Virus record (IMG/VR): IMGVR_UViG_3300026484_000382
Coordinates: 1-64,000 of that record
DNA from: a virus
DNA length: 64,000 nucleotides
Reading direction: 5' to 3' (one strand)
Position 1 is the first letter of the stretch; each line of letters begins with the position of its first letter. This document shows, one piece after another, positions 364 through 63,447 of the stretch. Below the pieces are notes generated by a model that searched no databases, had not been told where the DNA came from, and was given only the letters and a program-made list of their open reading frames with translations. The position numbers and the translations under genes were made by a program.

Positions 364-1515
364 ATGAATTTATTAAAAGAAGCAAAAACAAGATTGTGGA
401 AAGAAGTGGATAGGCTGCTAAATTCAGGAACAGAAGAAGATAGAGCAAAAGCAATGTCTATTCTAAGTCAAGTATCAGTTCATACTAATAGAAGAAATTC
501 TTTTTATGGAATGCCAACTAAAAATAGAAAGAAACTGTCTTTAAGAGAAATTAACAGTATTGTTAGTGAGAATGGTTCTAGTGAAAACTATAAGAAAGCA
601 TACAGAAAGAATTTAAAGTCAAAAGAAGATGAGTATTTTAAAGGTGGGAAAAACAGTGTTTTTGCTACTGATGAAAGAACCTTTTTGAAATATAAAAACA
701 GACTTCCTTTGAAGACATACGACTCTATAAAAGATGAAGTATTGTTTTCCCCAAAAGATGCAGAAGATAAAATAATGTTTTTCTCAAAAGACACTTTTAA
801 TAACCATAAGTTCAATGCTTTTAATTATTTAAAAAGCAAAAATTTATATTTTAAAAATAAAGAAGATGAAGTTAAAGCATTAGATAAATTATTCTTAGAT
901 CCAGAAGAGATGCAAAAAGAACTTCAATTGGAAAAGACTTTTGAAAAAGGACGCATTCCTTCATCTCCAGACAAAATAAATTTAATACACAAATATAAAA
1001 ATAAAAACCCAAACAATCCTGTATTCCCTGCTTCTACAGTAGGGGTTAGTAATTTAAAATATCAGTACAAAAGAAATAAATATTTTGTTCCTAAAAATGG
1101 TAAGGTGGTTTATGGTAGAAATGGATATGCTACAGCAATAGAGCCAGGATTGTATGCTACAGACCAGATGCCATTACTGTATCAAAGATATGCAGAAAAA
1201 GGCAAATTAACAGATGATGATATAAACAATATATTATCATCAGAACATATGATGACTCATTATAGAGGTTTTAAAATGGATGATGGTGATATCCCAGCAA
1301 TTATGAGGCTTAAAGGAACAAATTATTCTAAAAAATATAAGGATACTATTAAACCTGATGTAATAGACTCTGAAGATGAAGTAATTGTCCCTTTAAAGGA
1401 TTATAAAAATTATAATGTAGAACCTTTTCACAAAGGTAGAATTTTAGAAGATAAAATTCATTCAAAGATAATATCTGAATTTAACACAAATACAAAAAGG
1501 AATAGAAATGGCTAA
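364..1515 (+). CDS. LxKxA-leader protein, putative packaged effector; C-terminus possibly ADP-ribosyltransferase-like
   Basis: Start moved to ATG 364 behind GGAG; begins MNLLKEA; C-terminal VYGRNG...GLYATD...YA...PAIMRL...SEDEVIVP pattern. Confidence 0.6.
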   Translation: MNLLKEAKTRLWKEVDRLLNSGTEEDRAKAMSILSQVSVHTNRRNSFYGMPTKNRKKLSLREINSIVSENGSSENYKKAYRKNLKSKEDEYFKGGKNSVFATDERTFLKYKNRLPLKTYDSIKDEVLFSPKDAEDKIMFFSKDTFNNHKFNAFNYLKSKNLYFKNKEDEVKALDKLFLDPEEMQKELQLEKTFEKGRIPSSPDKINLIHKYKNKNPNNPVFPASTVGVSNLKYQYKRNKYFVPKNGKVVYGRNGYATAIEPGLYATDQMPLLYQRYAEKGKLTDDDINNILSSEHMMTHYRGFKMDDGDIPAIMRLKGTNYSKKYKDTIKPDVIDSEDEVIVPLKDYKNYNVEPFHKGRILEDKIHSKIISEFNTNTKRNRNG

Positions 1516-2602
1516 AAACAAAAAAAACAATAATTATACAGGCTTGGGAATAGGTGTTGCTGGTGGTGGTTTATACGGACTTGGTTCATATTTTAAAAAA
1601 GATGTTGGTAGACAACTAAAAGAGAGTACAAAAACACTGCAAGATATAGAAAAAGGAATAGCACAGGAAGAAAAAGATATTAATATGGGTAAAAAGTATA
1701 TAAAAGAAATAAAAGACAAATACGGAAATAGTGAGACTTTTGATACATTAAGTTTTCAATACAAAAATAAATTAAATAATAATATTATAACACTACCTGG
1801 GTTAATTAGGGAAAATAGAGACAATATTAAAAAGTTAAAGAAAGAAATAACCCTAAAAGAAAAGAATAGTATCAGTATATTAAGAAGAGAATTAGAAACT
1901 CAAGAAAGAGAAAGAAAAATGTTAATGGATGAAATAGAAAAAATAGATAAAACCATAAAGAATATGGATAAATTAAAAAATAATGTAAAACAAACTATGA
2001 AAAGCGTAAGTGAAGAAAAAAAGAGAATGGAAAATAGAATGATGACAGAAGCTGAATTTAATAGCTTTAAAAAGAATATAGACAAAAAAATTAAAGATAA
2101 TGAAAATCTCCATAAAATAATAAAAAAAGATAGGGAGTTAATTAAGCAAAGAGATGAAACAATTAGAAAGATTAAAAAGATAGACAAAAGAATAGAATCA
2201 TTAGAAAGACAAATTAGTAAAATAGGGCACAATAGTGTAAAAGAAACAGAAATAATTAATCTTAGAAGTAAGTATTCTAAATTAGAGAAAGAAAATCTAG
2301 ATTTAGTTGATAAATTAACAGATTCTAAAAGAGCACTAAGAGAGTTAGAAGAGTATTTAAAAAAAATTGAAAGCGAAGTTAATAATACTAGTGTGTTGGA
2401 TGAAGAATTACTTGCTTCGGCTCAAAAGGGATTGGAATATGAAAAAAACAATACTTTACCAACTTGGCAAAAAATAGTTAAAAACAATAACATTAAAATG
2501 AAAGCTGCTGATTATATAGGTAAAGCAGGTATAGGTGTAGGTATAGCAGGCGCTTCTAAGTTTATTTATGACAAGTATCAAAACAGAAAAAAATCCTTAT
2601 AA
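1508..2602 (+). CDS. Long coiled-coil protein with glycine-zipper helices at both ends
   Basis: GLGIGVAGGGLYGLG at N-terminus, ~300 aa K/E heptad coil, GKAGIGVGIAGASKFIYDKY at C-terminus. Confidence 0.8.
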   Translation: MAKNKKNNNYTGLGIGVAGGGLYGLGSYFKKDVGRQLKESTKTLQDIEKGIAQEEKDINMGKKYIKEIKDKYGNSETFDTLSFQYKNKLNNNIITLPGLIRENRDNIKKLKKEITLKEKNSISILRRELETQERERKMLMDEIEKIDKTIKNMDKLKNNVKQTMKSVSEEKKRMENRMMTEAEFNSFKKNIDKKIKDNENLHKIIKKDRELIKQRDETIRKIKKIDKRIESLERQISKIGHNSVKETEIINLRSKYSKLEKENLDLVDKLTDSKRALRELEEYLKKIESEVNNTSVLDEELLASAQKGLEYEKNNTLPTWQKIVKNNNIKMKAADYIGKAGIGVGIAGASKFIYDKYQNRKKSL

Positions 2603-2675
2603 ATAATGGGTTTTTTCTTGAAATTGTGTTATTTTTGTGATATTATTTTACAATAAATAAAACAAGGAGAAAAAA

Positions 2676-3691: not shown

Positions 3692-4588
3692 ATGAATGCT
3701 CCAGGTACAATTACAACAAAAGGTGATGAAGTATATGCGGTTCTTCCGCGTATAGTTGCTAAAGGTGCTCCACAAAAAAGAATAACAGAAACAATCTATA
3801 AATTGGTTATGTATGTGTTTAGTTTAGTTGATATTAGAACTGATGATTTATCTGGTAAAAGAATAAAAATAAATGTTCAAGATCTAAATAAACATATGGG
3901 GAGAAAGACGCTTTTTAGTGCTGATGTTTTGCAGAGAGCTAAAAAAAAAGATGTAATTTTTAGTGATAAAAAAACAAATGTAAAAATATTTTCTGAAATT
4001 GGAGATTTTGAAGGTAATTATTTTGTTGTTTTACATGACTCACTAATAGATTATATTCAAGAAAACAAAGATAAAGAGAATATGTTCTTTAAAGTAGATA
4101 TAAAACCTGTATTACAAATGAATACAAAGAAAAATTATTACACATTAATGATGTATGTTTATCTATCTATATACCTTGAAGAGAAAGATGAAAAACTAAT
4201 TAAAAACTGTTTGTGTGAAGCAGGTGTAATTAAAGCTGCTTTGGGTGTAGAAAATTATAATATTTACTTATTAAAGAAAAATGTATTGTCTAGAATTACA
4301 GAAATATTCAATAAAGAACCTTACTCTAAAATATTTGTTACTTATGAAATAAATGGGCATAAAGTAGAATTGTTTGTTGCTAAAAAGAAATACTTCTCTG
4401 ATTATGATGATTTTTTTAATGAAACATTTAATAGAGCATACGGAGAAGGATTTAAAGAAAAAATTGCTTATATGTCAGAACAAGATAAGACTAATGAAGA
4501 TAAAAAATACAATGGTTTTGTGTTTGGGTTATTCACAGGTATATTTGTTGGTGGGATTGTTGGAGGTATTATTTCTGCTCTTTTATAA
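3692..4588 (+). CDS. Rep_3/RepB-like winged-helix protein with C-terminal hydrophobic helix
   Basis: FFKVDIKPVLQM..KNYYTLMMYVYL...IKAALGVENY....KKNVL..I..IFN......VTYEINGHKV follows the Rep_3 pattern; ends GFVFGLFTGIFVGGIVGGIISALL. Confidence 0.5.
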   Translation: MNAPGTITTKGDEVYAVLPRIVAKGAPQKRITETIYKLVMYVFSLVDIRTDDLSGKRIKINVQDLNKHMGRKTLFSADVLQRAKKKDVIFSDKKTNVKIFSEIGDFEGNYFVVLHDSLIDYIQENKDKENMFFKVDIKPVLQMNTKKNYYTLMMYVYLSIYLEEKDEKLIKNCLCEAGVIKAALGVENYNIYLLKKNVLSRITEIFNKEPYSKIFVTYEINGHKVELFVAKKKYFSDYDDFFNETFNRAYGEGFKEKIAYMSEQDKTNEDKKYNGFVFGLFTGIFVGGIVGGIISALL

Positions 4589-4686: not shown

Positions 4687-5115
4687 ATGGAAAAACGATC
4701 ATTTACCTTAATAGAATTAATCTTTGTTATTGTGATTATTGGTTTATTGGCAGCAGTAGCAGTTCCTAAGTTCTTAACAACTAAAAAGAATGCAGAAACG
4801 GCTAATTTACCAAGTGTGGGACATCAAGTTGTAACTAAAGCAACAGAACAATACACTATAGTACAAGAAGAGAATTTGTCTAAAATTATAGATGAAGATA
4901 AAGACTTAAAAAGATATTATAATGAAATTAAAGATAATCCATTGTTTGATACTGATAAAAATTACGAAGAATTTAATATATCATGGCATTCAACAGGAGA
5001 AGTGTGTTTGAAAGTGTATAGAGATACTACTGTATATAAAATTAATAAAAATGATGAAGGTATTACATACGACTTCATTGTTAAAGAATTAAATACATCT
5101 TGTAATGCAGATTAA
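4687..5115 (+). CDS. Type IV pilin/pseudopilin-like protein with class III (prepilin) signal
   Basis: MEKRS|FTLIELIFVIVIIGLLAAVAVPKF with E at +5; C-terminal Cys pair; AAGGA RBS favours start 4687. Confidence 0.9.
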   Translation: MEKRSFTLIELIFVIVIIGLLAAVAVPKFLTTKKNAETANLPSVGHQVVTKATEQYTIVQEENLSKIIDEDKDLKRYYNEIKDNPLFDTDKNYEEFNISWHSTGEVCLKVYRDTTVYKINKNDEGITYDFIVKELNTSCNAD

Positions 5116-8208: not shown

Positions 8209-8424
8209 ATGATTTCAAAAGGTTATGTTGAGTATAAAGGTGATATAGGACCAATTAAGGCTGGGTGGCCAGATTTAGGGACTTGTGGTGATGCAGGTTC
8301 AATTAAAGCTGGGTGGCCCGATATGGGAACTTGCAGTAAGATAGGTGATGGTGGAGATGCTTTAATGGCTAACACTGAATGGCCTCCTGCTTTAATGGCT
8401 AATACTGATTGGCCACCACTATAA
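8209..8424 (+). CDS. 71-aa repeat peptide, (IKAGWPDxGTC)x2 + (ALMANTxWPP)x2
   Basis: Own promoter/RBS; the repeats differ mostly at synonymous positions. Confidence 0.8.
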   Translation: MISKGYVEYKGDIGPIKAGWPDLGTCGDAGSIKAGWPDMGTCSKIGDGGDALMANTEWPPALMANTDWPPL

Positions 8425-8438
8425 GAGGAGTGATAAAA

Positions 8439-8993
8439 ATGAATAATAGAGAAAAAGAAAGAGATAGATTATCTCGAAATATTGAACTATTAAGCAATTC
8501 TATACCAGTAGGTCTTTCTATGGGTATAGGAGGATTAGCTTCTAAAAACAATAAGATGGTAGCAGCTGGTCTTGGTACTACAGTAGCAGGTGGGTTAATG
8601 ACACACGCTTATTGTGAAAAAAATAAAAAGAAACTAAAAGAAATATATGGTAAAAACTTTAGTTGCTCTGGTTCTAAAGACCCTGTAACAAAAAAACACA
8701 GGGTAATTTCAGCATTAGGTGGCGCTGGATTGTCTGCTGCTGGATTTTTAGCTTCTAAAGATAATAAATTATTAAGAAATATCTCTTTAGCTGGTGGTGG
8801 TATATCTGCTATTAGATTAGGGGCTGCATTACTTGGTAATGATAGGAAACTTAACGAAAACGAAAAAGATATGGATAAAGAACTAAAAAAAATATATAAA
8901 AAACAAGTGGAAACAGATAAAGCCTATAGAGAAAAATATAAAACATTGGAAGCATTAGACATGATAGGTGCGATTCCAACTAGTGCTTATTAA
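8439..8993 (+). CDS. Glycine-zipper multi-helix protein
   Basis: GAGGAG RBS before 8439; four G/A-rich segments arranged as two ASK(N/D)NK-linked hairpins. Confidence 0.75.
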   Translation: MNNREKERDRLSRNIELLSNSIPVGLSMGIGGLASKNNKMVAAGLGTTVAGGLMTHAYCEKNKKKLKEIYGKNFSCSGSKDPVTKKHRVISALGGAGLSAAGFLASKDNKLLRNISLAGGGISAIRLGAALLGNDRKLNENEKDMDKELKKIYKKQVETDKAYREKYKTLEALDMIGAIPTSAY

Positions 8994-15986: not shown

Positions 15987-16073
15987 GTTTTAGTCCTTTA
16001 TTTTTTTTGAAGTTGGAATTATATCTAAAAAAAATAATATTTTTTTGTATAATTTTAAAAAAAAAGGAATAAA

Positions 16074-16952
16074 ATGGGAGCTAATCGTTTTCTATTGTAT
16101 AAACAAGCTATAACAGAACAAGAACTTATAAAATCTATAAATAGACGAATTTCTGGGATAAAGAAAAAAAATAAAGACTTTTCAGTTTTAACACATTCTC
16201 AGCTATTTAATTTTTTTGATTTGAAAAGAAAGTATTTAGATTGGATAAAAGAAAAGAAAAATTCTTTAGATGGTTTTTTAGAAAATGCAAAAGGTGGGAT
16301 GAATAAAAATTACTTTAATAGTTTATTAAAAGATTATCAAGAAATTGAAGAGAAAAAACCAGATTTAGTAAACAAAGCTGCTTACAAAGCATTAGATGAT
16401 TTACTTGATGATGGTTTTTTTCAAGCGAGAGGTATAGGTGGAAAATATTTTAGAGATAAAGGTATAATAATAGGAAAACAAAAACAAACAAATGGAAGAA
16501 GATCTACTCTATTCCATGAATTAAATGAACACTCTAATAGAAATAAGAAAGTAAATTGGTATGATTTGAACAAATCAAAAGATGATGAAATTACACATTA
16601 CAATGTGTCCAATGTAAAGGGATTAGACCATAATTTGTTAGTAACAGCAAAGGGTAAATTAAGAAAAGATTTAGAGTTAGTTGGTAAATACTCGAAAAAT
16701 AATGGAGGTTATACACTAGAAAAACTTGTTAGGAGAGTTCTTGGAAAGGACAATCCAGAATTTTTAAACTGGGAGTATGGAAAAGGAAGAAAATTAAATA
16801 GACATCACAGAAAAAAACTTTTAGAGTTTGAACATAAGCATGCTAGTAACTTTCAAAGCCCTTTAAATGATTCTTACTTAAGAAACATTAAAAATAAAAA
16901 TAGAAACAAAAAGAAAAAAGCAATTTTTTCAGAATATATAAAATACATTTAA
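16074..16952 (+). CDS. LxKxA-leader basic protein with HExxE/H motif
   Basis: MGANRFLLYKQA; TLFHELNEH; own TATAAT (16048-16053) + A-tract AAGGA. Confidence 0.75.
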   Translation: MGANRFLLYKQAITEQELIKSINRRISGIKKKNKDFSVLTHSQLFNFFDLKRKYLDWIKEKKNSLDGFLENAKGGMNKNYFNSLLKDYQEIEEKKPDLVNKAAYKALDDLLDDGFFQARGIGGKYFRDKGIIIGKQKQTNGRRSTLFHELNEHSNRNKKVNWYDLNKSKDDEITHYNVSNVKGLDHNLLVTAKGKLRKDLELVGKYSKNNGGYTLEKLVRRVLGKDNPEFLNWEYGKGRKLNRHHRKKLLEFEHKHASNFQSPLNDSYLRNIKNKNRNKKKKAIFSEYIKYI

Positions 16953-16963: not shown

Positions 16964-17282
16964 ATGAGTAAATAGCACACACAAGAGAATATGGGATGTG
17001 GATAGCAAAAATAATTAGAAGAGATAAAACTTATTTAATTTGTGGTTCTATTAAAAATAGAAGGGCTCATCATATTAATTCTGGTAGTTACCTTCCTGAA
17101 GATAGGTATAGAGAGAAAAATGGTGTGTGTTTATGTGAAAAACATCATAAATTGTTTCATACATCTTACAAGAACTCTTTTAGAGAGAAATGTACAAAAA
17201 AAAAGATTTTAGTAATTTTTTAGAATTTATATTGAAATTTGTTCCTGTTGATGAAGATTGTGGTATTATAACAGCAACTTGA
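16964..17282 (+). pseudogene. Decayed HNH endonuclease paralog of 17613
   Basis: RBS+ATG 16964, Trp codon changed to TAG (16973-16975), frameshift before 16996, extra A's near 17196-17204; DFSNFLE continues in another frame. Confidence 0.8.
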
Positions 17283-17612: not shown

Positions 17613-17954
17613 ATGGCAACATGGCATTCAAGTAGAGAATATAGAATTTGGAGAGCAAAAATAATTAGAACACAAAAAGAATGTTTAATTTGTTCATCTA
17701 TAAAAAAAAGAGCTGCTCATCACATGGATAGTGGTAGTTATTTCCCAGATGAAAGATATAAAATGGATAATGGTGTATGTTTATGCGGAAAACATCACAG
17801 AATGTTTCATAATTCCTACAAAAATAGTTATAGAGAAAAGTGTACAAAAAAAGACTTTGCTAATTTTTTAGAATTAATGATTAAAATTTCAAATGAAACA
17901 GGTTGCTATAATAAAGAAAAAATGATAGAATTCCGTTCAAAAATTTTAAAATAG
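17613..17954 (+). CDS. HNH endonuclease (zinc-binding, small phage type)
   Basis: CLIC...AAHH...RY..DNGVCLC..HH..FH. Confidence 0.85.
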   Translation: MATWHSSREYRIWRAKIIRTQKECLICSSIKKRAAHHMDSGSYFPDERYKMDNGVCLCGKHHRMFHNSYKNSYREKCTKKDFANFLELMIKISNETGCYNKEKMIEFRSKILK

Positions 17955-17962: not shown

Positions 17963-18058
17963 ATGAAAAAGATGCATAAACTAAAAAGAGTTTGTAAAGT
18001 TAAAGTAGAGAAAACAAAAAGGTTTTTAAAGACCTTTAATTGGAAATGTGAATTTTAA
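17963..18058 (+). CDS. 31-aa basic peptide MKKMHKLKRVCKVKVEKTKRFLKTFNWKCEF (not in ORF track)
   Basis: AGGA RBS; paralog of 15885-15986 (KLK..CK...KRFL..FNWKC). Confidence 0.7.
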   Translation: MKKMHKLKRVCKVKVEKTKRFLKTFNWKCEF

Positions 18059-18594
18059 TATCCATTTTCCTCTCTGTTTTGTCTAGCTTTGTAAACACCA
18101 TACCCACCTGCTAATGTTAGAGCACCAGCCCCAATACCAGTCTTTATTTTATTCTCTTTCATCCAGTTTAAAACACTATTACCTGATTTAGTTGTAGTAT
18201 CTATATTTGTATTGTATATCTTTTGCTTAAATCTTTTTCTTTCTTCTGCTTTGTTTTTTAATTTTTTGATAGAAATAGGTGTTTCATTGTTAAGGTTAAT
18301 TTCTTGTTGTATATTTTTAACTTCAGGTGTTTCTTTTTGTGATGCCCTATATTGATCTCTTTCTGCTTTAAACTTTGTTTTAGACCCCTGTCCAGAAATA
18401 TGTTTTAACTCTTTATGTTCTTCTGGGGTAATTAAACCATTTGCTAGCATTTCATCTAGCTTTTTGTGTAATTTGTTTTGTTTCCCGTTAAATTCATTAC
18501 TATTAACAAAATCCATTATAAACTTATTATTACCGAATCTATCTTTTATTTTATTATAATAAGCCGTTTTAATTAAGTATTGTGTTGCATTCAT
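18055..18594 (-). CDS. LxKxA-leader protein with C-terminal glycine zipper
   Basis: MNATQYLIKTA; GIGAGALTLAGGYGVYK; own promoter/RBS cassette (minus TATAAT 18616-18621). Confidence 0.85.
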   Translation of the reverse strand: MNATQYLIKTAYYNKIKDRFGNNKFIMDFVNSNEFNGKQNKLHKKLDEMLANGLITPEEHKELKHISGQGSKTKFKAERDQYRASQKETPEVKNIQQEINLNNETPISIKKLKNKAEERKRFKQKIYNTNIDTTTKSGNSVLNWMKENKIKTGIGAGALTLAGGYGVYKARQNREENGY

Positions 18595-19180: not shown

Positions 19181-19603
19181 ATGCCAACTATTTCAACAAT
19201 GTTTGATAAACCATTAGAAGAAGATATTGCTTTAGAAACAAAATCTACTTCGGCTTCTAGTATAGTTGATACTTTAAAAAATGCTGAAAACACATATAAA
19301 GCATTTTTATATTTAAGAGCTATGTATTCATTGTATCCAAATAAAGAAACAATACTTAAAATGGATACAGTTAAAAGTGATGATTATGTAGAGATAGATA
19401 AACCTGTTAATGCAAACAGAATATTTGTGGTTAATACGGGAGATGGTAGTTGTTACATTAAATTTAATGATGAAGAGTTTGAGATTGTTGCTGGGAAAGA
19501 ATATGAATTTCCTGTTATTCCTAAAACAGATGAAAATGATGGTGATAAAGTTGAAGTTAAAGGAACACTTTCCTATTACATGAAAAACGTACAGGAGTTC
19601 TAA
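19181..19603 (+). CDS. Putative virion structural protein (paralog of 19605)
   Basis: T.FD.PLEED...LKN.EN.YKAFLY shared with the next gene; promoter TATAAT 19154-19159. Confidence 0.7.
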   Translation: MPTISTMFDKPLEEDIALETKSTSASSIVDTLKNAENTYKAFLYLRAMYSLYPNKETILKMDTVKSDDYVEIDKPVNANRIFVVNTGDGSCYIKFNDEEFEIVAGKEYEFPVIPKTDENDGDKVEVKGTLSYYMKNVQEF

Positions 19604-19604: not shown

Positions 19605-20012
19605 ATGGGAAATACTATAAAAACAAGATTTGACTCACCTTTAGAAGAAGATGTTACATTTGAACAAACAGAAAATCAACAAGAAATAAGTGATTTATTA
19701 AAAAACACTGAAAATATATATAAAGCTTTTTTATATATGAAAGAAATGTTTTCTAGTGCACCTGTGTTTAATAAAATCGTTAATATTACTTATGTTGATG
19801 ATGTTACTGACGAAGATATCTCAATTAATGAAGAAGCTAATTTATTAACATTTAAAAACAACAACAAAGACACATCTGAAATTTACTATAATGACAATGA
19901 TAAATTAGTGTTGTACGCATATGAACAAATTGATATACCTGTTTTTAGTGGAGACACTATTAAAATTACAGGGACTATGAATATTATACAAATGAAATAC
20001 GAAATTAGATAA
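19605..20012 (+). CDS. Putative virion structural protein (paralog of 19181)
   Basis: Shared N-terminal motif and small beta-sandwich-like C-terminus. Confidence 0.7.
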   Translation: MGNTIKTRFDSPLEEDVTFEQTENQQEISDLLKNTENIYKAFLYMKEMFSSAPVFNKIVNITYVDDVTDEDISINEEANLLTFKNNNKDTSEIYYNDNDKLVLYAYEQIDIPVFSGDTIKITGTMNIIQMKYEIR

Positions 20013-22535: not shown

Positions 22536-22566
22536 TATGTTAAAATTAACAAAAAAAGGATTAACA

Positions 22567-23004
22567 ATGAGAAGTTTTAATTTAATTAAGACAGCGGCTA
22601 AGAAAAAAGATAATGGACTTAACACAGCTGAAAAAGCTGCTATAGCAAGTGCAGGAGTTGGGGCAGCTGCTTTATCACCTTATGCAGCGAAAAGTGTTAT
22701 GAAAATGTTAGCAGAAAGAAGTGGTAAAAAAGCAGATAAATTATTAGCAAAAGCTGATACTTATAAAAATGCTAACAAATCAGGATGGTTCGGTGGTCTA
22801 AGAGAAGGTCACAAGAAAGAACATGAAGAGTTAATGGAAGTTTATAGAAAACAAGCAGAAGCAGCAAATAGAGCTCAAGGTAGAGCAGATTCTGTTGCAG
22901 GGTTTGTAGACAAACATGGTAAAAAATTAAAATATGCCGCAGGTGCAGGTGCCGCAGGTGCAGGAACTGGTTTAGTATATGGACAAGGACAAAGAAGAAG
23001 TTAA
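22567..23004 (+). CDS. LxKxA-leader protein with two glycine/alanine zippers
   Basis: Start moved to 22567 (TGTTAAAAT 22538-22546, AAGGA); MRSFNLIKTA; AAIASAGVGAAA...AAGAGAAGAGTGLVY. Confidence 0.85.
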   Translation: MRSFNLIKTAAKKKDNGLNTAEKAAIASAGVGAAALSPYAAKSVMKMLAERSGKKADKLLAKADTYKNANKSGWFGGLREGHKKEHEELMEVYRKQAEAANRAQGRADSVAGFVDKHGKKLKYAAGAGAAGAGTGLVYGQGQRRS

Positions 23005-23115
23005 TCATTCCTCTTTCTCTTCTTTTTTCTTCACAAAAAAATAATCTTATAATTAATATTTCATTTTTATAAAACACTTTTTTATGTTATAATTAACAAA
23101 AAAAAGGATTTATAT

Positions 23116-23955
23116 ATGGAAAGATTTGGATTTAAATTGTTTAAAGACCCTGATTTAAATTATGAATTGGTTGCAGGTGATGTTAAAATTGCACTTAACT
23201 CTGTAAACCAACAAGAACAAACTGTTACAGTTTATTTTGGGGCTTGGGATCAATATGATCCAGCAAAACAAAAATCAATTAGAACGAAACTTACTTTGTC
23301 GCCAAATGACACCTTACTATGGACATTGGTTAGACTGGTGGATGATGGAGATGGAGGATTAAAAGAAATTCCCGCTGTTGAATTTGTTAAATCTGTAAAA
23401 GTAACTGCTCCTGATGAAGAAGATTTAATCTCTTTAAATCCTAATAATCATGTTGCTAACTTTTATTACAACGATGATGATGATAAGAAATTATCAGAAG
23501 ATGGAGATGATGTTATTTGGGGATTTTTTAATGTAGGTGAATATAAATTTGGATGGTCAACTTCTACAAATGTTGAGGCTGGGTATTTTAGAGCTGCAAA
23601 AAGAGATGATGATGATTCTTCTAAAGAAATTATTATGACTAGAAGAGATGTTTATGGTGATGATGATGACCACCCTGATAGATTTATGTTATGGTCTCAT
23701 GGAGACAGATTACCACATGGTTGGTATATTAAGGACTTTTGGGCATATACTTACCCTAATGATGACGATGATGAAACACAAGCTAATGATATTATCCCTA
23801 AATTAAAAACAATATCAACAGGAGTTGGTAATGCTATTAGATTTGATGTTACTTTTTATATTCCAGAAAATTATACTGGAGATAGTCAAGACCTATCGTT
23901 TAAATTTAAGATACTTGGTCTACAAAATGTTCTTGTTGAACAGAATGAAATCTAA
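23116..23955 (+). CDS. Putative virion structural protein, acidic
   Basis: Promoter TGTTATAAT 23085-23093; FGFKLFKDPDLNYEL N-motif shared with downstream genes. Confidence 0.7.
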   Translation: MERFGFKLFKDPDLNYELVAGDVKIALNSVNQQEQTVTVYFGAWDQYDPAKQKSIRTKLTLSPNDTLLWTLVRLVDDGDGGLKEIPAVEFVKSVKVTAPDEEDLISLNPNNHVANFYYNDDDDKKLSEDGDDVIWGFFNVGEYKFGWSTSTNVEAGYFRAAKRDDDDSSKEIIMTRRDVYGDDDDHPDRFMLWSHGDRLPHGWYIKDFWAYTYPNDDDDETQANDIIPKLKTISTGVGNAIRFDVTFYIPENYTGDSQDLSFKFKILGLQNVLVEQNEI

Positions 23956-24057
23956 TAGAGAGTCTTTGTTTTTTTTGCTGGTAAAGTAAAAACAGTATAT
24001 TAATCGGCGGCACAGGATAGCCGCTATAACAAACAATAATTAAAAAAAGGATAAAAA

Positions 24058-24750
24058 ATGGCAATTAGTGGTAATGTTAATTTATTTGAATTAGGGTTTA
24101 GGTTTTATCATGATCCAAATTTGAGATACGAAATAACTCCGGATTCTCAAATAAGAATAGATCCAGCAACGGGTAAAGCAACAATGTTCTTTGGTATGAG
24201 AGACTATTTGGTTGATGGTGTAAGAACAAGAAAACAGCTAAAAGTTGTTCAAGGTGCTCCAACATTTTTTCTTGAAGCTATAGATGAAACTGGTCAAAGA
24301 AATTGGGATGGTGTAAAAGGAATTCGTTGGGATGACAAAGGAACTATGACGTCTTACAATGATGCCCTTACTGCACCAGAAAGAATAAGTGATTATTACA
24401 ATGCCGACACTGCTTGTCCTAATGATAATACACAAGCTAGAGTTGCATTTGTATTTTGTTATGATAATAACGATACAAGATATAAAATTAAAAACTCTGA
24501 CGATGGTTCAACTAGAGAAGTTTATGCAAGAAACACAACAACTATTACATTAAATAAAAATGAGTACATTTATGGTATTAATTCTCATAGGAGTAGGCTT
24601 TTATCCGAATTGAAATCAGGAATAGATAATGCTTTTAAAATAGAAATTACATTTGATTTGGCTTATGATTTTACTGGACAGCAAAGAGGTTTAAATTTTT
24701 TTACAATGCCTGATACAGTTATTCAAGTTATAGAATATGTATTGGATTAA
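24058..24750 (+). CDS. Putative virion structural protein (paralogous termini with 23116)
   Basis: LGFRFYHDPNLRYEI...LKSGIDNAFKIEITF. Confidence 0.7.
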   Translation: MAISGNVNLFELGFRFYHDPNLRYEITPDSQIRIDPATGKATMFFGMRDYLVDGVRTRKQLKVVQGAPTFFLEAIDETGQRNWDGVKGIRWDDKGTMTSYNDALTAPERISDYYNADTACPNDNTQARVAFVFCYDNNDTRYKIKNSDDGSTREVYARNTTTITLNKNEYIYGINSHRSRLLSELKSGIDNAFKIEITFDLAYDFTGQQRGLNFFTMPDTVIQVIEYVLD

Positions 24751-53683: not shown

Positions 53684-54055
53684 ATGGATTTACTAAAAGT
53701 AGCAAACGACCCATATGCGAGTTATTTAACAAAAACAGCCGCGGTGATCAGTGATTTTGAACAAGGAAGAATTACTGCTGATGAAGCGTTTGGAGCAGCT
53801 CAAGAAATGGGAATTGCACCACAAGATTTAGTTGCAGCTCAAGAAGTTTTATTTAAAGAAGCTTCAGAAAGTGCTAGCCTTGAAAAAGTAGCATCAATTG
53901 TAGATGACCCTTATTGCACACCACTTGAAAAAGTAGCAGCGATTGTAGACGGTATTGCTGCAGGAACTGTTGATTATGATGCAGGAACTCAAGTTGCAGC
54001 TCAATTAGGATTTGATGCTCAAGACATGGAATATATCTACGCACAAACTCACTAA
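53684..54055 (+). CDS. Acidic scaffold/core-like protein with five LxKxA sites
   Basis: LLKVA, LTKTA, LFKEA, LEKVA x2; internal duplication; own promoter TGATAAAAT 53655-53663. Confidence 0.75.
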   Translation: MDLLKVANDPYASYLTKTAAVISDFEQGRITADEAFGAAQEMGIAPQDLVAAQEVLFKEASESASLEKVASIVDDPYCTPLEKVAAIVDGIAAGTVDYDAGTQVAAQLGFDAQDMEYIYAQTH

Positions 54056-54278: not shown

Positions 54279-55001
54279 TTATTTTGTTTTAATATTTTGA
54301 GTTGAAGAATTGCTTTTAACTAATATTTTAGTGTTTGGCGTAATGTGTTTTGTAGAGTTTGTTTGGTTTATTCTATACATTTCTGAAGTCGATAAAGTTG
54401 TGGGGTTACTAGCTGGTTTCATTCCTGGGGTTATGTTGATAGTTTGTTCAACAATATTATTAGGCTTATTATTACAATCAAATAAATCTTTTTTTGTTTT
54501 TGTTAATTCATTTTGACATTTAGTTAATTGGTCTAGCTCTTTATAACACAAATTACAAACTGTATTTACCCCAAAACTCTGATTTATTTTAATTATTTCA
54601 TTGTCTTCAATCTCATTATAAGAAGCAAAATAAAATCCATATTTTAATTCTGTTAATTGACCTCTTATGTTTTTTGTTATTGACTCCCAGGACAATGAAA
54701 GACCCTCTTCGCTGTTGAAAGCAGAATAAATTATCCTTTTTTTCCCATCTCCATATTTTAAAACAACGGCATCAGTTTTTTCGTCGGAGAATACTATTTG
54801 AATTAAAATATACCCGTTTTTATATGGTGGTTGTATTGTTAGAATAATATAATTATCTCTTTGCAGTGATGGTATAATTTCTGTTCTGTATGTGTTATCA
54901 TCAAAAAAATAAATAGCATTATTTGTTTTGTAAAACTTACTATCTACAATTATTGATTTTTTTTTGTCTATAGGTAAACAAGGAGCAAAAGAAAAACTCA
55001 T
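54279..55001 (-). CDS. Hypothetical protein
   Basis: Start MSFSF at 55001 via ATGA overlap with the upstream gene. Confidence 0.65.
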   Translation of the reverse strand: MSFSFAPCLPIDKKKSIIVDSKFYKTNNAIYFFDDNTYRTEIIPSLQRDNYIILTIQPPYKNGYILIQIVFSDEKTDAVVLKYGDGKKRIIYSAFNSEEGLSLSWESITKNIRGQLTELKYGFYFASYNEIEDNEIIKINQSFGVNTVCNLCYKELDQLTKCQNELTKTKKDLFDCNNKPNNIVEQTINITPGMKPASNPTTLSTSEMYRINQTNSTKHITPNTKILVKSNSSTQNIKTK

Positions 55002-56053
55002 TGTTCTTGTTTCTCTTTTTTGTGTTTTACCCATAATTCAGGTAATTTAACTAATCCATAACCTAACATACCTCCCCATAAAGCTTTACCAGCTGTATGC
55101 CCAAGTAATGACTTATCTAACACAGGACTACCTTTCATTCCTTTATATAAATCAATATCATCACTATTGTAGCCATGTTTTATTTTTGACATCATATTAG
55201 GCAGAAGATATTTTGATAAAGAATGTAATAGTTTTTTTGAACCTTTGGCTCTTTCCCCCGCTTTAGACCATACTTCACCTTTTTTTACATCTTTTAATTC
55301 ATTTTTATCAAAGTAAGTGTCTGGGGTTGAACCAACAGATTTGTAGGCTCTTCCTAATAGTCTTAAAGTTAAAGGTTCTACTCCAGCACCTATTGCCATA
55401 CCTGCTCCACTTAATACTGCAGGAGAAAGAACATTTTCTTCTTTATTGTCTAATTCGGCTGTTGCTGCTGAATTAGCTCCTCCCATAACAGCCATTGGAA
55501 CAAAACCTTTAAGAAATCCTTTTCCCCTAAAGGAACTTATAACACCGCCCATTACACCTCCAACGCCTCCACCGAATAAAGCGGCTTTACCTACATCTTC
55601 CTGGCCTTCTTTTCTTTTTCTTTTTTGTTCATCAAGTTCATCTGTTGCTAATTCAGCAGACCTAGATAAACCAGCTGTTTTCACAATTAAATAATTACCA
55701 GCAGAACTTTGTTTTACCAAATCTATCTTTTTTTTTAAGTATTGGTTTGAAACTCTTTTACCTGCTAATAATTTCCTTGCTTCAATAGCTTTATCTACCT
55801 TTTTATTATTGGATACTTTACCATATGCTCCACCTGCTGCTGCACCAGTTCCAATGTGAGCAAGTGTGCCTATTAATCCAGTTTTCTTACTTCTTGCTGA
55901 ATCAAAAATCCTCAACCCAAGCCCACCAACAAGGGCACCTTTATATGCTCCTTCTAGCACAGGTTCAACGTCTTTCCTTGTGTGTGGGTAGAGAGCATCG
56001 GCTTTAGCTTGTTCTTCAAGAATGTATCCATCAATACTTCTATTTTTATCCAT
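54998..56053 (-). CDS. Multi-glycine-zipper protein with internal LxKxA sites
   Basis: GAYKGALVGGLG, GTGAAAGGAYG, GGGVGGVMGG etc.; LVKQS and LIVKTA at a domain junction. Confidence 0.85.
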   Translation of the reverse strand: MDKNRSIDGYILEEQAKADALYPHTRKDVEPVLEGAYKGALVGGLGLRIFDSARSKKTGLIGTLAHIGTGAAAGGAYGKVSNNKKVDKAIEARKLLAGKRVSNQYLKKKIDLVKQSSAGNYLIVKTAGLSRSAELATDELDEQKRKRKEGQEDVGKAALFGGGVGGVMGGVISSFRGKGFLKGFVPMAVMGGANSAATAELDNKEENVLSPAVLSGAGMAIGAGVEPLTLRLLGRAYKSVGSTPDTYFDKNELKDVKKGEVWSKAGERAKGSKKLLHSLSKYLLPNMMSKIKHGYNSDDIDLYKGMKGSPVLDKSLLGHTAGKALWGGMLGYGLVKLPELWVKHKKEKQEQ

Positions 56054-56070: not shown

Positions 56071-56478
56071 TTATCTAGACAAACTTCCTGCTGTTTGAAT
56101 GTATTTTAATGCTTTTTCTGTTTTAGAACCTCTATTAATATCAGCAATAATTTTAGCTGTTGCTAAATCAACATTACCACCATATTGATGAATTTGATAT
56201 ATAGCATCTGCCATCAATTCTTTATTATCAGCCATTCTAGGAGATAAAGTATAAACTGCTCCAGCCCATGCTTTTAATTTACTGTCAGACACTTCTCCTA
56301 ACTCTGGATGTTTTCTTTTAGCATATTTAACAATACTATTTAATCTAATCTTAAACATTAAATCATCTGTTTGCTGAATTACCTTTTCAGCTCCTACTAA
56401 TGTTGCCGTTGTTCCACCTACTGTCATAGCAATATCTTCTAATTTACTTTTCTCAGCTATTTTTTCTAAATAAGACAT
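56071..56478 (-). CDS. LxKxA-leader protein
   Basis: MSYLEKIA; short G-rich helix. Confidence 0.8.
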   Translation of the reverse strand: MSYLEKIAEKSKLEDIAMTVGGTTATLVGAEKVIQQTDDLMFKIRLNSIVKYAKRKHPELGEVSDSKLKAWAGAVYTLSPRMADNKELMADAIYQIHQYGGNVDLATAKIIADINRGSKTEKALKYIQTAGSLSR

Positions 56479-59566: not shown

Positions 59567-59624
59567 AATAAATTGCAAAATAAAATATTTTATGCTACAA
59601 TAAACAAAAAAAAAGGATTAACAG

Positions 59625-60029
59625 ATGAGAGCATTTGACCTTATCAAAACTGCAGGTGCAGAATATGGATACGACGAACAAGACAATGAAGGACTATCTC
59701 CAGTAGCTAAAGCAGCAATCGCAGCAGGGCTTCTTACAGCAGGTGGAGCAGGATTAAAATATGGTGGTCCTAAATTAGCAGACCACATGATGGATAAAGT
59801 TAATAAATTAGGCGATGAAAGTGAAAAAATTAAAGCAATGTTAAAAAAGAAAAAAGATGATAAACCTCTTTATGAAAATGCTAGTAAGGCTAAAGAAGCT
59901 TTAAATAAAAAATGGCAAAAATTAAAAGAGATCGGTGAGCACAAACATGGTGGGAAAGCACTTATTGGTGGAGGTGTTACAACTGCAGCTCTTGCTGGAA
60001 CAGATTACTACCAAAGAAATAGAGGGTAA
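59625..60029 (+). CDS. LxKxA-leader protein with two glycine zippers (paralog of 22567)
   Basis: Promoter TGCTACAAT 59593-59601; MRAFDLIKTA; GLSPVAKAAIAAG...KHGGKALIGGG. Confidence 0.85.
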   Translation: MRAFDLIKTAGAEYGYDEQDNEGLSPVAKAAIAAGLLTAGGAGLKYGGPKLADHMMDKVNKLGDESEKIKAMLKKKKDDKPLYENASKAKEALNKKWQKLKEIGEHKHGGKALIGGGVTTAALAGTDYYQRNRG

Positions 60030-60116: not shown

Positions 60117-60578
60117 ATGAATTCAAAAAGTTACTTTTTATTTAAAACAGCTGATGACAATAATAATGGTGTTGGGACAGGAACTATTGCAGGAGGTGCT
60201 TTAGCATTAGGTGGGCTTGGAAGTATGGGATACGGACATAATTTAATTAATAAAGCTACACCTGATACTCCACTATTTTCAAAAGGAAACCAACTTGGTA
60301 CATTAGGATATGGTGCTGCAAATATCCAACAAACTAAAACAATTGGAGAAGCAAATACAAAAAAAATTAATGATTTTGTTGAGTTTAATGGTGGAAAAGA
60401 AAAATTTGATGTTAACAATCTAGATGAAACAGGAAAGAAGACATATAATAAAATGTTAACAGAAGGTGAAAATATAGCTAATTTAGGAAAAGGTTCTAAA
60501 TTTATGCATTATGGGAAAATTGGTGGACTACTTGGTGGTGGAATGATGTTAGGATCAATGCTAACCAATAATAATTAA
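60117..60578 (+). CDS. LxKxA-leader protein with glycine zippers
   Basis: Promoter TGCTACAAT 60089-60097; MNSKSYFLFKTA; GGALALGGLGSMG...GGLLGGGMMLG. Confidence 0.85.
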   Translation: MNSKSYFLFKTADDNNNGVGTGTIAGGALALGGLGSMGYGHNLINKATPDTPLFSKGNQLGTLGYGAANIQQTKTIGEANTKKINDFVEFNGGKEKFDVNNLDETGKKTYNKMLTEGENIANLGKGSKFMHYGKIGGLLGGGMMLGSMLTNNN

Positions 60579-60590
60579 AAAGGATATAAA

Positions 60591-60845
60591 ATGAAGATAG
60601 AACAAATTTCTGAACTATTAGAAAAAACAGCTGCTCATATAGAGATGCTTGAAAATGAAAACAATATGTTAAGAAAAAAATTAGAAGAAAGTGTTTCTGC
60701 AGTTAATTTAAACAAAGAAGCTTCTTTTGATTTTTCAGATGTAGTAAATAACGACTATGATTCTTTAGGGCAACCTTCTAATTATTCCCCGAGTAATCAA
60801 CTTTCTTCTGGGCAAAAATTAGAAGAGTTCTTAAATAATTTATAA
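60591..60845 (+). CDS. Small scaffold-like coiled-coil protein
   Basis: LLEKTA, LNKEA; C-terminal LEEFLNNL amphipathic tip; upstream of capsid genes. Confidence 0.65.
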   Translation: MKIEQISELLEKTAAHIEMLENENNMLRKKLEESVSAVNLNKEASFDFSDVVNNDYDSLGQPSNYSPSNQLSSGQKLEEFLNNL

Positions 60846-61335: not shown

Positions 61336-62271
61336 ATGAGTATTAATGTAGAAACTCCAGTAATTCAACAAAACACAGGGTTAATTAAAGCAGCTTATGC
61401 TGGTGGTGACCTTTTAAAACAAGCTATGGATAACAGCACATACTTTATTAGGGATAAAGTAAGAGAACTTGGTTTTGCTAGAAAAGTGATTGAACCCATT
61501 TTTGTTACAAGTGCAGATTTAGATAGAGTTCCAAACAATGAACAACCTGCTATCATCTTAGAAAAAGATATCGAAAGTAAAGGGATGACAGTGCCATTCA
61601 GAGGGCAAGGAGAACAAAGATATTGGGAAAGAGAAGACATGGTTGTTAATTTCCAAAAAATTGAATCAGAAAGAATTAACAAATCTAAATTCGAAATGAT
61701 GACTTCTAAAACTCCATATACTGAAGTTCTTAAAAAAAGAATTGTTGAAGAAGTGCAAAAAGTTGAAGATGAAACTTTAATGAACGGATTTAATGCTATC
61801 ATAGAAAAAGCAGAAGAAGAAGCTCCTGGTACACAATATCAAGAATTAGAAGGTGGATTAAATAAAACAAACATTAAGATATTAATCCAAATGCTTTCAA
61901 GATTAAAAATGATTCCACCAACAGGTCCAAAACCAAAAATCTTAATGACACAAAACCTTAAATTAGAACTAATTGAATTAGGTATGATTGAGATTGGTGA
62001 TTCTAATGTTGGAAAATATTGGAATGAAGGTGTAGTTGGGGTAGATAAATTATTCAATATCCCTGTAGTATCTACAATTAAAAATGATTTAGTAAAAGAT
62101 GATGAAGTGTTTATTATTGCTCCTCAAGATTACTTCGGAAGATTCTTTATTTTACAAGACCACACAATGGTTATTGAGACTAAAGCAGATATGATGAATA
62201 TGTATACTTATGCTGCTATGGGAATGGGATTCGTTAATACAAAAGGTGTATGTAAGATTAAATTATCTTAA
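61336..62271 (+). CDS. Major capsid protein (HK97 fold)
   Basis: IRDKVRELGFARKVI...EVQKVEDE...LFNIPVVSTIK...APQDYFGRF...MGFVNTKGV; 311 aa; LIKAA at residues 17-21. Confidence 0.8.
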   Translation: MSINVETPVIQQNTGLIKAAYAGGDLLKQAMDNSTYFIRDKVRELGFARKVIEPIFVTSADLDRVPNNEQPAIILEKDIESKGMTVPFRGQGEQRYWEREDMVVNFQKIESERINKSKFEMMTSKTPYTEVLKKRIVEEVQKVEDETLMNGFNAIIEKAEEEAPGTQYQELEGGLNKTNIKILIQMLSRLKMIPPTGPKPKILMTQNLKLELIELGMIEIGDSNVGKYWNEGVVGVDKLFNIPVVSTIKNDLVKDDEVFIIAPQDYFGRFFILQDHTMVIETKADMMNMYTYAAMGMGFVNTKGVCKIKLS

Positions 62272-62347: not shown

Positions 62348-63301
62348 ATGATTTTTGGTAATGCTCAAAAGTATGTATCGATAGCAAAACAAATTATTAA
62401 TGAAATAAGTCATGGGGGAGACAACCCAGAGGAATTATTGAATAAGTATGCTAAAGAATACAATCTAAATGACAACATGAAACAAAGAGTTGTAGAAGAA
62501 TATAATGTAAATATGTTTTTAAGTAAATTGAAAGATGGTAGTCACCAAGAGCATTACGTATTATTGAATCCTGTTATTGATGAAACACAAAAATGGAATT
62601 CTATCATTGAAAAAAATAATAAAGAAAATGAACATAAAAAGAATATGACTAAAACAGCTTTTTACAATGAAGAAGCTAATATTGTGTTTAAAAATAATTC
62701 AATGGAATATGACCATGACCCACTTTTAAATGGTTCTTTTTCCGATAAAACATTGGTAAGTTCTTTTGAGTACGGAGATACTTCTGATTTACTTAAAGAT
62801 GCTTCTTACAGAGAAAAACGTAGAGAAGAAGAGAAGTTTAAAGAGTTAGTAAAAACTGCTCACTATAAAGGTCATGAAGTTATAAATCAATTAGCAAATG
62901 ATTTAATAAAAGTAGCAAACATTTCAACAGGAGCTACAAAAACTATAATTTATGATTTAATTAAAGAAGGGCATGAAGATATTGCTAATACTGTTATGGA
63001 AAACTGCAAATACAAACCAAACGAAATACTTGCAGCAAAAATGACAGATGGTATATTTGAGCAAGATTTGCCTTTATTAAAAACATCTCAAGAACTTATA
63101 AAAGAAGCAACTATAAGTAAATTAATTATGAGAGTAATATCAGAAAAAGGTATGGAACATATTGGAAGTGCTTTAAACAAAATAAAAACTATGGTAGGGC
63201 CTAAAAATAGAGCAAAAATATATATGGCTTATGTAATGAGCAAATTCCTTACAGATAAAAAGCCTGGCGCATTACACAATAGTTTTATTCAGAACGCTTA
63301 A
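62348..63301 (+). CDS. Head-core-like protein with multiple LxKxA sites
   Basis: Start moved to 62348 (A-tract AAGGA); MTKTA, LLKDA, LVKTA, LIKVA, LLKTS, LIKEA. Confidence 0.75.
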   Translation: MIFGNAQKYVSIAKQIINEISHGGDNPEELLNKYAKEYNLNDNMKQRVVEEYNVNMFLSKLKDGSHQEHYVLLNPVIDETQKWNSIIEKNNKENEHKKNMTKTAFYNEEANIVFKNNSMEYDHDPLLNGSFSDKTLVSSFEYGDTSDLLKDASYREKRREEEKFKELVKTAHYKGHEVINQLANDLIKVANISTGATKTIIYDLIKEGHEDIANTVMENCKYKPNEILAAKMTDGIFEQDLPLLKTSQELIKEATISKLIMRVISEKGMEHIGSALNKIKTMVGPKNRAKIYMAYVMSKFLTDKKPGALHNSFIQNA

Positions 63302-63312
63302 AAGGATATAAT

Positions 63313-63447
63313 ATGGAAAACAATCAAAATTTAATTAAAATAGCTCAGGTAGTTAAAGAGCACGCAAAAAAATGGTATTTAAAAAAAATGGCAGCGTTAA
63401 AAATAATAGACACTATAGATGCATATAAAGAGGCAATGAAGAACTGA
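63313..63447 (+). CDS. 44-aa LxKxA peptide MENNQNLIKIAQVVKEHAKKWYLKKMAALK... (not in ORF track)
   Basis: AAGGA RBS; LIKIA and LKKMA. Confidence 0.7.
   Translation: MENNQNLIKIAQVVKEHAKKWYLKKMAALKIIDTIDAYKEAMKN

Follow-up and report, generated by a model that had tools for sequence, protein, structure and literature searches.

Why do proteins with no detectable kinship, scattered over a phage genome, begin with the same few residues? We analysed a window of 64 kb, part of a 74.7-kb fragment that, according to CheckV, represents 46% of the roughly 160-kb genome of an uncultured phage. Here 13–14 N-terminal leaders, each of 7–14 residues, end in Leu-x-Lys-x-Ala (L-x-K-x-A), and the motif recurs within head proteins. 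The initial annotation had proposed a head-processing system analogous to those of T4 and phiKZ, with a K-x-A specificity and unrelated cargo proteins.

Frequency and position of the motif

The motif was counted in 93 ORFs (23,192 aa) and compared with within-protein shuffles as null. The pattern [LIFM].K.A was observed 44 times (24.4 ± 4.9 expected), and a tight form, defined post hoc after the data had been seen, 24 times (1.9 ± 1.4 expected), in agreement with the enrichment over a composition-matched background that the proposal implied. Five control patterns were flat against the shuffles (reversed order, K changed to R or E, A changed to G or S); the E form, [LIFM].E.A, showed no enrichment in the 93 ORFs. 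The initial regular expression had ended in Ala or Ser. Variants ending in Ser were not enriched and amounted to noise, therefore we kept only Ala at the last position.

The expected clustering in the first residues was also found. Fourteen matches started at one of the first 12 positions of their protein, compared with 29 at the remaining 21,473 positions (odds ratio 9.4, Fisher 1e-8; controls flat). The head-gene block, 53684–74701, had 32 sites (8.1 ± 2.8 expected), and the block 23116–53630, called tail in the initial annotation, had 3 (7.9 expected). At the residue following Ala, which the pattern leaves unconstrained while fixing Ala itself by definition, 97 sites showed 30% Ser (4.6-fold) and 14% Ala (2.9-fold).

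The ten N-terminal leaders listed initially were all at the given positions, each after an AAGGA-type ribosome-binding site. A further match, MSKLA at 7143, is probably due to chance. The codons for K, x and A differed synonymously between leader genes, and in G005, a 96%-related genome, leader substitutions never fell on L, K or A. Selection therefore acts on the peptide. Eight leader genes were preceded by a promoter-like unit, also found upstream of several putative structural genes.

Proteins carrying the motif

The leader proteins were mutually non-homologous, with no paralogy detectable among them. The tagged cargo was mostly basic, and glycine zippers were associated with the leader (Fisher 0.004); glycine-zipper proteins lacking a leader were also present (1508, 3692, 8409). 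Two leader proteins were basic orphans: (i) one of 383 aa, with the leader MNLLKEA (364–1515, plus strand); and (ii) one of 292 aa, with the leader MGANRFLLYKQA (16074–16952, plus strand), preceded by a TATAAT and A-rich RBS unit. The search for homologues found none for (i) outside its own cluster and none for (ii), and neither gave a Pfam or PHROG match. The “ART-like” and “HExxE” domains initially assigned to them were abandoned. For the 383-aa protein the Atlas gave a sub-threshold language-model lead (Arr-type ADP-ribosyltransferase, 0.81), and for the 292-aa protein a sub-threshold lead to Peptidase_M78-like models (TM about 0.3).

The other leader proteins were smaller. A basic protein of 179 aa (18055–18594, minus strand; MNATQYLIKTA) had a C-terminal Gly-rich hydrophobic segment at 149–171, and a basic glycine-zipper protein of 145 aa (22567–23004, plus strand) started with MRSFNLIKTA. 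Among the head genes, a 135-aa protein (56071–56478, minus strand) started with MSYLEKIA; its orthologue in G002, a complete 161-kb uncultured genome, was 52% identical and retained a leader, MGLLHKIA. Glycine-zipper segments at both ends were found in a 134-aa basic protein with MRAFDLIKTA (59625–60029, plus strand) and in a 153-aa protein with MNSKSYFLFKTA (60117–60578, plus strand). The G005 orthologue of the former had a single change in the leader, D to E, at the residue before Leu. A 44-aa protein (63313–63447, plus strand; MENNQNLIKIA) had an orthologue in L007, an uncultured relative's locus, and similar small leader proteins occurred in relatives. The window ends within a gene for a basic glycine-zipper protein of 176 aa, of which it contains the 3' part (63500–64000, minus strand). 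This gene starts with MRSFYLIKTA at genome position 64030, beyond the window; its product was 75% identical to the G005 orthologue, which kept L, K and A. Also outside the window were the leaders MNSISFLYKKA (genome 70016) and MNASDFIKVA (genome 71831). The small cargo proteins had no homologues in G002 or elsewhere in the searches, therefore their packaging is without comparative support.

A second group carried several sites. As initially counted, a 123-aa acidic scaffold/core-like protein (53684–54055, plus strand) had five, with Ala at 7, 19, 60, 70 and 85; its G002 orthologue (24200–24844) had six, one of them N-terminal. The 317-aa head-module protein at 62348–63301 (plus strand) had six K-x-A sites, as reported, plus one K-x-S, and its orthologues in G002, L007 and L004, the locus of another uncultured relative, had 2–7. 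In an 84-aa acidic coiled-coil scaffold-like protein (60591–60845, plus strand), LLEKTA was N-terminal and LNKEA followed; orthologues in relatives retained an N-terminal LEK[IA]A. An acidic protein with multiple sites was encoded outside the window, at genome 66698–67195. For a 351-aa glycine-zipper-rich protein (54998–56053, minus strand), sites at a domain junction had been described. IVKTA (123–127) does lie between glycine-zipper regions, but it is the single K-x-A site, the other being a Ser variant. The G002 orthologue (23101–24123) had K-x-A at a similar position, 115–119.

Pfam and PHROGs returned no match for nearly every head protein submitted. Nothing useful was retrieved for the capsid protein, the 317-aa protein, the glycine-zipper proteins, or the large ORFs initially labelled sheath, tube or baseplate. 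When a tail-block ORF and the head region were run against a phage collection in nucleotide and protein searches, no match came up.

Major capsid protein and prohead protease

The major capsid protein (61336–62271, plus strand) has the HK97 fold, as judged from an AF2 model (pLDDT 84, pTM 0.82) with 329 Foldseek matches in the PDB at E ≤ 0.001, led by encapsulins, HK97, T5 and P4 (E about 1e-9). The motif that the initial annotation saw in this protein is present, with LIKAA at 16–20 instead of 17–21, and there is a second copy, LLKQA, at 26–30. K28 and A30 did not vary among 34 homologues, the most distant at 30% identity, therefore the conserved site is LLKQA and not LIKAA. In the model, LLKQA opens a predicted helix instead of lying in a loop.

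The proposal called for a prohead protease elsewhere in the genome, and a predicted serine prohead protease was found just outside the window, at genome 70767–71432. It matched phrog_18299, “head maturation protease” (E 1.2e-11). Its AF2 model (pLDDT 78) had the T4 gp21/herpes-assemblin fold: the best PDB match was T4 gp21 (5jbl; Foldseek probability 1.0, VIA Z 9.2 over 134 residues), herpes assemblins reached Z 6–8.3 in the fold comparison, and the BFVD matches were prohead serine proteases. In the PDB only fold comparison succeeded; neither the protease sequence nor its profile retrieved a match in sequence searches. Pfam Peptidase_S77 did not match the protease; neither Peptidase_S78 nor Peptidase_Prp had a match in the contig, and the likeness to S78-type proteases was structural only (BFVD). 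The protease carries a CxxC...CxH insert. H95, S146, C156, C159, C171 and H173 were invariant in the family out to PaBG and mycobacteriophage Alice, with His95 and Ser146 as candidate catalytic residues. The protease also has a motif of its own, LQKEA at residues 28–32, of which K30 and A32 were invariant in 13 homologues, down to 35% identity. In the model this stretch is disordered and borders a disordered N-terminal piece.

Related phages

Salmonella phage Arash (OQ632216) and Vibrio phage D69 have head genes related to those of our phage. A survey of 50,697 phage genomes showed the capsid protein only in the records of Arash, D69, D148 and D181. These four share with the phage studied here a homologous protease and K-x-A in the capsid protein, the protease and multi-site head proteins. 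They differ in that capsid-protein identity is 31–34% and their protease has a long C-terminal extension; Arash, moreover, has few N-terminal leader proteins.

Head modules of relatives, two cultured phage groups among them, were also enriched in the motif. The L004 head locus had 23 matches (1.7 expected) and Vibrio phage D69 had 43 (12 expected). In G002 we found 115 matches (61.5 ± 8 expected), proteins with 5–10 sites, and leader and glycine-zipper proteins of its own. Arash gp220, gp223, gp225 and gp242 had 6–9 sites each, and its capsid protein and protease read GLVKEA|G and GLTKQA|A, the bar marking the presumed cut bond. PaBG, Bacillus phage G (gp19) and mycobacteriophage cluster C (Alice gp90) have proteases of the same family, with the conserved His, Ser and Cys/His insert. 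No K-x-A enrichment was found in the head genes adjoining the protease in Alice and PaBG.

Our literature search found no paper mentioning this K-x-A motif or a protease specificity of this kind. The Arash paper does not mention the motif; it describes a virion proteome, makes no report of cleavage, and gives coverage values too coarse for N-termini and no data at peptide level (PMC10585845).

The sole host lead was a homologue of the capsid protein in a Sulfurimonas single-cell genome. Scanning for a host with genome contigs gave matches only in contigs binned into unrelated MAGs.

A probable T4-like cut-and-load system

Given the gp21-fold protease, the invariant capsid-protein motif, the enrichment in relatives and the leaders on non-homologous proteins, a T4/phiKZ-like system with K-x-A specificity is the best reading. 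As a whole, we regard such a cut-and-load system as the probable explanation. Of the initial proposal, the protease, the conserved motif and the non-homologous cargo stood; the ART and HExxE domains, the choice of LIKAA in the capsid protein and the Ser form did not.

That the motif is a prohead-protease site is very likely. Substrates would bear the mark L-x-K-x-A, in many cases with Ser or Ala as the next residue, and the bond cut would be the one after Ala. The capsid protein would lose about 30 N-terminal residues and the protease about 32 of its own. The acidic multi-site proteins at 53684, 60591, 62348 and 66698 would be broken down to small peptides, in the manner of a T4-type scaffold core. 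The mark would also be found on at least nine small proteins, unrelated and mostly basic, in a leader that consists entirely of Met, 2–9 residues and the motif. If it works like the T4 capsid-targeting sequence, this leader would carry them into the prohead and be clipped there. Once mature, these proteins, which mostly have one or two glycine-zipper helices, would remain in the capsid, and might exit with the DNA and act at the host envelope. Our confidence decreases along this chain. The leader proteins are likely to be substrates residing in the prohead; whether the leader itself is the targeting signal, as the T4 analogy suggests, is nearly an even call; and their ejection as membrane-active proteins is conceivable, at somewhat less than even chances.

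The T4 system comprises gp21 and the internal proteins IPI–III, Alt, gp67, gp68, gp22 and gp23, with the motif L/I-x-E. Besides the protease fold, our phage would resemble it in the use of one short motif on the capsid protein, the protease, multi-site acidic core proteins and basic proteins with a leader of ~10 residues. It differs in the motif, L-x-K-x-A (then S/A) in place of L/I-x-E; in the protease, which has no Peptidase_S77 match and has the CxxC...CxH insert; and in the cargo, which consists mainly of glycine-zipper proteins, encoded in single-gene cassettes at dispersed places in the genome. The cut site of herpesvirus assemblin is (V/L)-x-A|S. This enzyme has the fold in common (Z 6–8.3), and its site would resemble ours in the Ala that ends the motif and the 4.6-fold preference for Ser after it, if the cut is placed there; here, in contrast, Lys is invariant two residues before Ala and Leu stands four before, in a bacterial-virus context. 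In giant-phage heads, many head and ejection proteins are processed, propeptides have several motif copies and the protease cleaves itself; the motif is S/A/G-x-E for phiKZ gp175 and A-x-E for SPN3US gp245 (PMC10052503). Multi-protein head processing, several motif copies and a protease self-site would be shared with our phage, which has Lys two before Ala and no Glu. Searches against the phiKZ/SPN3US phages gave no sequence match at E 0.01.

The most serious competitor, which we consider unlikely yet far from negligible, keeps the cleavage and drops the address. The motif would be a mere cleavage or propeptide site, with prohead entry through other determinants such as glycine-zipper helices or scaffold binding, or with trimming by mere exposure to the protease. 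The leaders, 7–14 residues long, indeed hold little beyond the motif, and in the capsid protein, the protease and the scaffold proteins it is purely internal. However, the capsid-targeting sequence of T4 is reportedly just as short, and in the 383-aa orphan and the 44-aa and 134-aa proteins the leader is the sole detectable shared feature. An uncleaved docking peptide for scaffold, portal, capsid protein or protease, retained on the mature proteins, would suit the helical modelling of the capsid-protein site. It is improbable in view of the acidic proteins, whose 5–10 sites at distances of 10–40 residues resemble a degradable core, of the disordered N-terminal piece that the protease motif borders, and of the Ser/Ala preference after Ala, which resembles the assemblin A|S site.

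It is also conceivable that the motif has no function: the leaders would stem from duplication of one DNA cassette with promoter, RBS and leader, or would simply follow from a helical composition rich in K and A. Three leaders (MRSF/MRAF...LIKTA) differ little from one another and have flanking DNA in common, and L-x-K-x-A-like heptad patterns are frequent in helical proteins. This reading is largely refuted already and very improbable: the motif exceeds composition-matched shuffles with the five control patterns flat, K and A are invariant in capsid proteins to 30% identity and in proteases to 35%, leader codon use varies synonymously, and the G005 substitutions spare L, K and A. Finally, a host enzyme, either Prp-like or a signal peptidase, might cut the leaders. 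A Prp-like protease processes staphylococcal phage 80alpha and ribosomal protein L27, and the N-terminal position and the Ala before the presumed cut recall Prp and signal-peptidase systems. The leaders are unlike the L27 extension, and they have no hydrophobic signal-peptide core; the phage protease has a conserved self-site. The same motif occurs in Salmonella and Vibrio phages, whose hosts are not known to have either the L27 extension or Prp. The Prp version was dropped because the contig had no Peptidase_Prp match and relatives infect Salmonella and Vibrio, and we give a host protease the smallest chance of all.

Implications

The T4-like K-x-A system would represent the T4 capsid-targeting principle with a protease specificity for which our literature search found no description. 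At its widest, and only tentatively, the 7–14-residue Leu-x-Lys-x-Ala leader may be a portable load-then-clip capsid address across a clade of 160–190-kb phages, comprising uncultured, probably Campylobacterota-infecting members and the cultured Salmonella and Vibrio phages. In the phage studied here it might load a fast-turning-over set of orphan proteins and basic, membrane-active glycine-zipper proteins, injected along with the DNA, and the protease would join a fold like that of gp21 to an Ala|Ser cut like that of herpesviruses. The glycine-zipper cargo suggests a route by which the host envelope could be breached or conditioned, and we know of no studied example of such a route.

With sequence as the only input, the motif predicts the mature N-termini of capsid protein, protease and scaffold proteins across a nearly unannotated clade, and offers a simple sequence rule by which candidates for proteins inside the capsid, possibly injected, can be listed for these phages. 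With Arash and the Vibrio phages in culture, the prediction is directly testable. Should the leader prove to be a true address tag, it could be used as a handle to package foreign proteins, like the T4 tag.

The phage, its relatives and a host lead

The window covered positions 1–64,000 of one 74,701-bp contig (~28% G + C), linear according to IMG/VR and with a CheckV completeness of 46%. Almost nothing submitted from the contig matched Pfam or PHROGs. The capsid gene had uncultured relatives at 58–96% identity, including G002, a complete genome of 161,461 bp with terminal repeats, and therefore the contig represents about half of a ~160 kb phage. Among 50,697 phage records, the capsid protein was shared only with Salmonella phage Arash and three Vibrio phages (D69, D148 and D181), at 31–34% identity. 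For the lineage, a host was hinted at only by P0061, a homologue of the capsid protein (54% identity) from a Sulfurimonas single-amplified genome. MAG-binned relatives were spread across unrelated phyla, probably due to mis-binning.

Frequency and position of the K-x-A motif

In 93 ORFs (23,192 aa) we found 44 [LIFM].K.A sites, versus 24.4 ± 4.9 expected from within-protein shuffles. A tight form of the motif, chosen post hoc, gave 24 sites versus 1.9 expected. The control patterns (reversed motif; K to R or E; A to G or S) matched expectation in these ORFs. Fourteen of the 44 matches began in the first 12 residues and 29 at any of the remaining 21,473 positions (odds ratio 9.4, Fisher 1e-8), and here the controls were flat. 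The tag proposed in the initial annotation thus exceeded the composition background and was enriched at N-termini. All leaders listed there were present at the coordinates given, each behind an AAGGA-type ribosome-binding site. Its Ser-ending variants were at expectation in the shuffles and are noise, and MSKLA at 7143 is probably a chance match. Further motif-bearing members were found at or past the window end, at 64030(-), 66698, 70016 and 71831.

The head block (genome 53684–74701) had 32 sites versus 8.1 ± 2.8 expected. The presumed tail block (23116–53630) had three [LFIM].K.A sites versus 7.9 expected, with 4% of the shuffles equally low, a shortage which may reflect avoidance or chance. 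Across 97 sites the unconstrained positions were structured, with Leu making up 77% of the hydrophobic position, T/E/I/V between K and A, and acidic residues upstream. The residue following the Ala was Ser in 30% (4.6-fold) and Ala in 14% (2.9-fold). Because of this preference, and by analogy with herpesvirus assemblin, which cuts after Ala, we place the putative cut directly after the motif Ala.

Leader proteins

Compared mutually by BLASTP (E 1e-3), the leader proteins had no similarity, in agreement with the proposal of unrelated cargo, and therefore simple descent together with a paralogous body does not account for the leader. The codons for K, x and A showed synonymous variation. In G005, a 96%-related contig, leader substitutions occurred at variable positions only, with L, K and A never changed. 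An origin of the leaders by cassette duplication, or from compositional bias, is largely refuted. The “ART-like” (364) and “HExxE” (16074) domains initially assigned to two cargo proteins are unsupported, both being orphans with only sub-threshold leads.

Single-leader proteins were mostly basic and multi-site proteins acidic. Gly-rich hydrophobic segments were found in eight leader proteins, and a glycine-zipper pattern in 6 of 14, versus 7 of 79 other proteins (Fisher 0.004). Glycine-zipper proteins without an N-terminal leader were also present (window 1508–2602, 3692–4588 and 8409–8993), so this family is wider than the tagged set.

A conserved unit consisting of TA(T/C/A)AAT and then an A-rich stretch with AAGGA at its end was found directly upstream of 22 ATGs, 19 of them ORF starts (e.g., window 16045–16076, 22539–22569, 38855–38883 and 59594–59627). 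It preceded eight leader genes and several putative structural genes (38881, 40298, 56545, 64077, 66698), and is probably a late-promoter and RBS module. The same unit preceded an ORF at window 4687–5115 (+) with a classical prepilin-type N-terminus (MEKRSFTLIELIFVIVIIGLLAAVAVPKF), similar to type IV pilins or pseudopilins. Two small Cys/His-rich paralogues (window 16996–17223 and 17613–17954; 68% identical over 69 residues, both with “AHH”), which may be HNH-like, lay on either side of a non-coding stretch. Tandem paralogous ORFs of 135–140 aa (window 19181–19603 and 19605–20012; 35% identity) were directly followed by a 687-aa ORF.

Capsid protein and prohead protease

The capsid protein (61336–62271) had the HK97 fold (model pLDDT 84; 329 PDB matches at E ≤ 0.001). 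Its K28 and A30 were invariant in 34 homologues, at identities down to 30%, while adjacent residues varied, the site reading LLKQA, FVKEA, RVKEA, MEKEA or LTKEA. The LIKAA, at residues 16–20 and not 17–21 as initially annotated, was found in close relatives only. Judging from this conservation, the mature protein likely starts at Met31.

The prohead protease that the initial annotation proposed to look for elsewhere in the genome was found at genome 70767–71432 (221 aa). It matched phrog_18299 “head maturation protease” (E 1.2e-11) and no Pfam family, neither S77 nor S78. Its AlphaFold model, built from 13 homologues (pLDDT 78, pTM 0.79), was nearest to T4 gp21 (Foldseek probability 1.0; VIA Z 9.2 over 134 residues, rmsd 3.2 Å), followed by herpesvirus assemblins (Z 6–8.3). 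Matching predicted viral structures included Bacillus phage G gp19, PaBG, phiRSL1 and many “prohead serine proteases”. His95, Ser146 (in S-M-G/A context) and a CxxC...CxH insert (C156, C159, C171, H173) were invariant as far as PaBG and mycobacteriophage Alice. The insert is probably a zinc-binding knuckle; we know of none in T4 gp21. The N-terminus carried its own motif, CDWLQKEA|S, with K30 and A32 invariant in 13/13 homologues and a model pLDDT <50 at residues 29–32, within the motif.

In more distant relatives the protease was fused to a C-terminal extension of 250–330 residues with additional K-x-A sites (L015:8059–9717; Arash gp222, L026:19920–21395; Vibrio phage D69, L027:14929–16344), ending in L015 with a glycine-zipper-like segment. 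The head maturation protease of PaBG (gp260, L029:14746–15510) had an L-P-K-A-A sequence close to the N-terminus that also aligned with this clade's self-site.

The motif in related phages

Head loci of uncultured relatives were strongly enriched, one of them (L004) having 23 matches versus 1.7 expected. The entire G002 genome had 115 [LFIM].K.A sites versus 61.5 ± 8 expected, with 5–10 sites in individual proteins. Sites were also found on orthologues of 53684, 56071, 60591, 62348 and 66698, and the 54998 orthologue had an internal site at 115–119, a similar position to 123–127 in 54998. The head region of D69 had 43 sites versus 12 expected. In Arash, the capsid protein read GLVKEA|G and the protease GLTKQA|A, and gp220, gp223, gp225 and gp242 had 6–9 sites each. 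The Arash paper termed the phage an orphan and mentioned neither protease nor cleavage, and neither its table nor its supplement allows N-termini to be resolved (PMC10585845). The head genes adjoining the more distant protease homologues in Alice and PaBG (in PaBG, a few genes) showed no enrichment. Therefore, the putative K-x-A specificity is a trait of the clade of Arash, D69 and this phage, and not of the entire protease family.

The small cargo proteins had no homologues in G002, which encoded its own leader-plus-glycine-zipper proteins (63545(-), 89023(-), 107632(-)), with a weaker N-terminal enrichment than here (odds ratio 2.6). Arash had few N-terminal leaders. Thus, the tag is retained as the cargo set turns over, with the strongest expansion seen in this phage.

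A putative prohead processing scheme

The best reading of these sequence data is a T4-like scheme, in which a prohead protease would act at K-x-A sites on capsid, core and leader proteins. A live alternative is that the motif is a cut site without an address function; that it is an uncleaved docking element is unlikely. Cutting of the leaders by a host protease was rejected, because the contig had no Prp match, the leaders are not signal peptides and relatives infect Salmonella and Vibrio.

The T4-like scheme shares its principle with the T4 capsid-targeting sequence and with the proteases of phiKZ, cutting after S/A/G-x-E, and SPN3US, cutting after A-x-E (PMC10052503). This phage differs from all three in its K-x-A motif, in a protease outside Pfam S77 and S78 and with a Cys/His insert, and in its dispersed, glycine-zipper-dominated cargo. 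We found no description of a K-x-A protease specificity in the literature.

The data above establish the sequence-level parts of the scheme; cleavage, packaging, a targeting role for the leader, and ejection are what we infer. Co-assembled into the prohead, the protease would shorten both itself and the capsid protein, cut the acidic core proteins down to peptides, and clip the short leaders from basic proteins previously brought inside. The clipped proteins would stay in the capsid and probably exit with the DNA. The glycine-zipper helices of these basic proteins suggest that they act in the host envelope.
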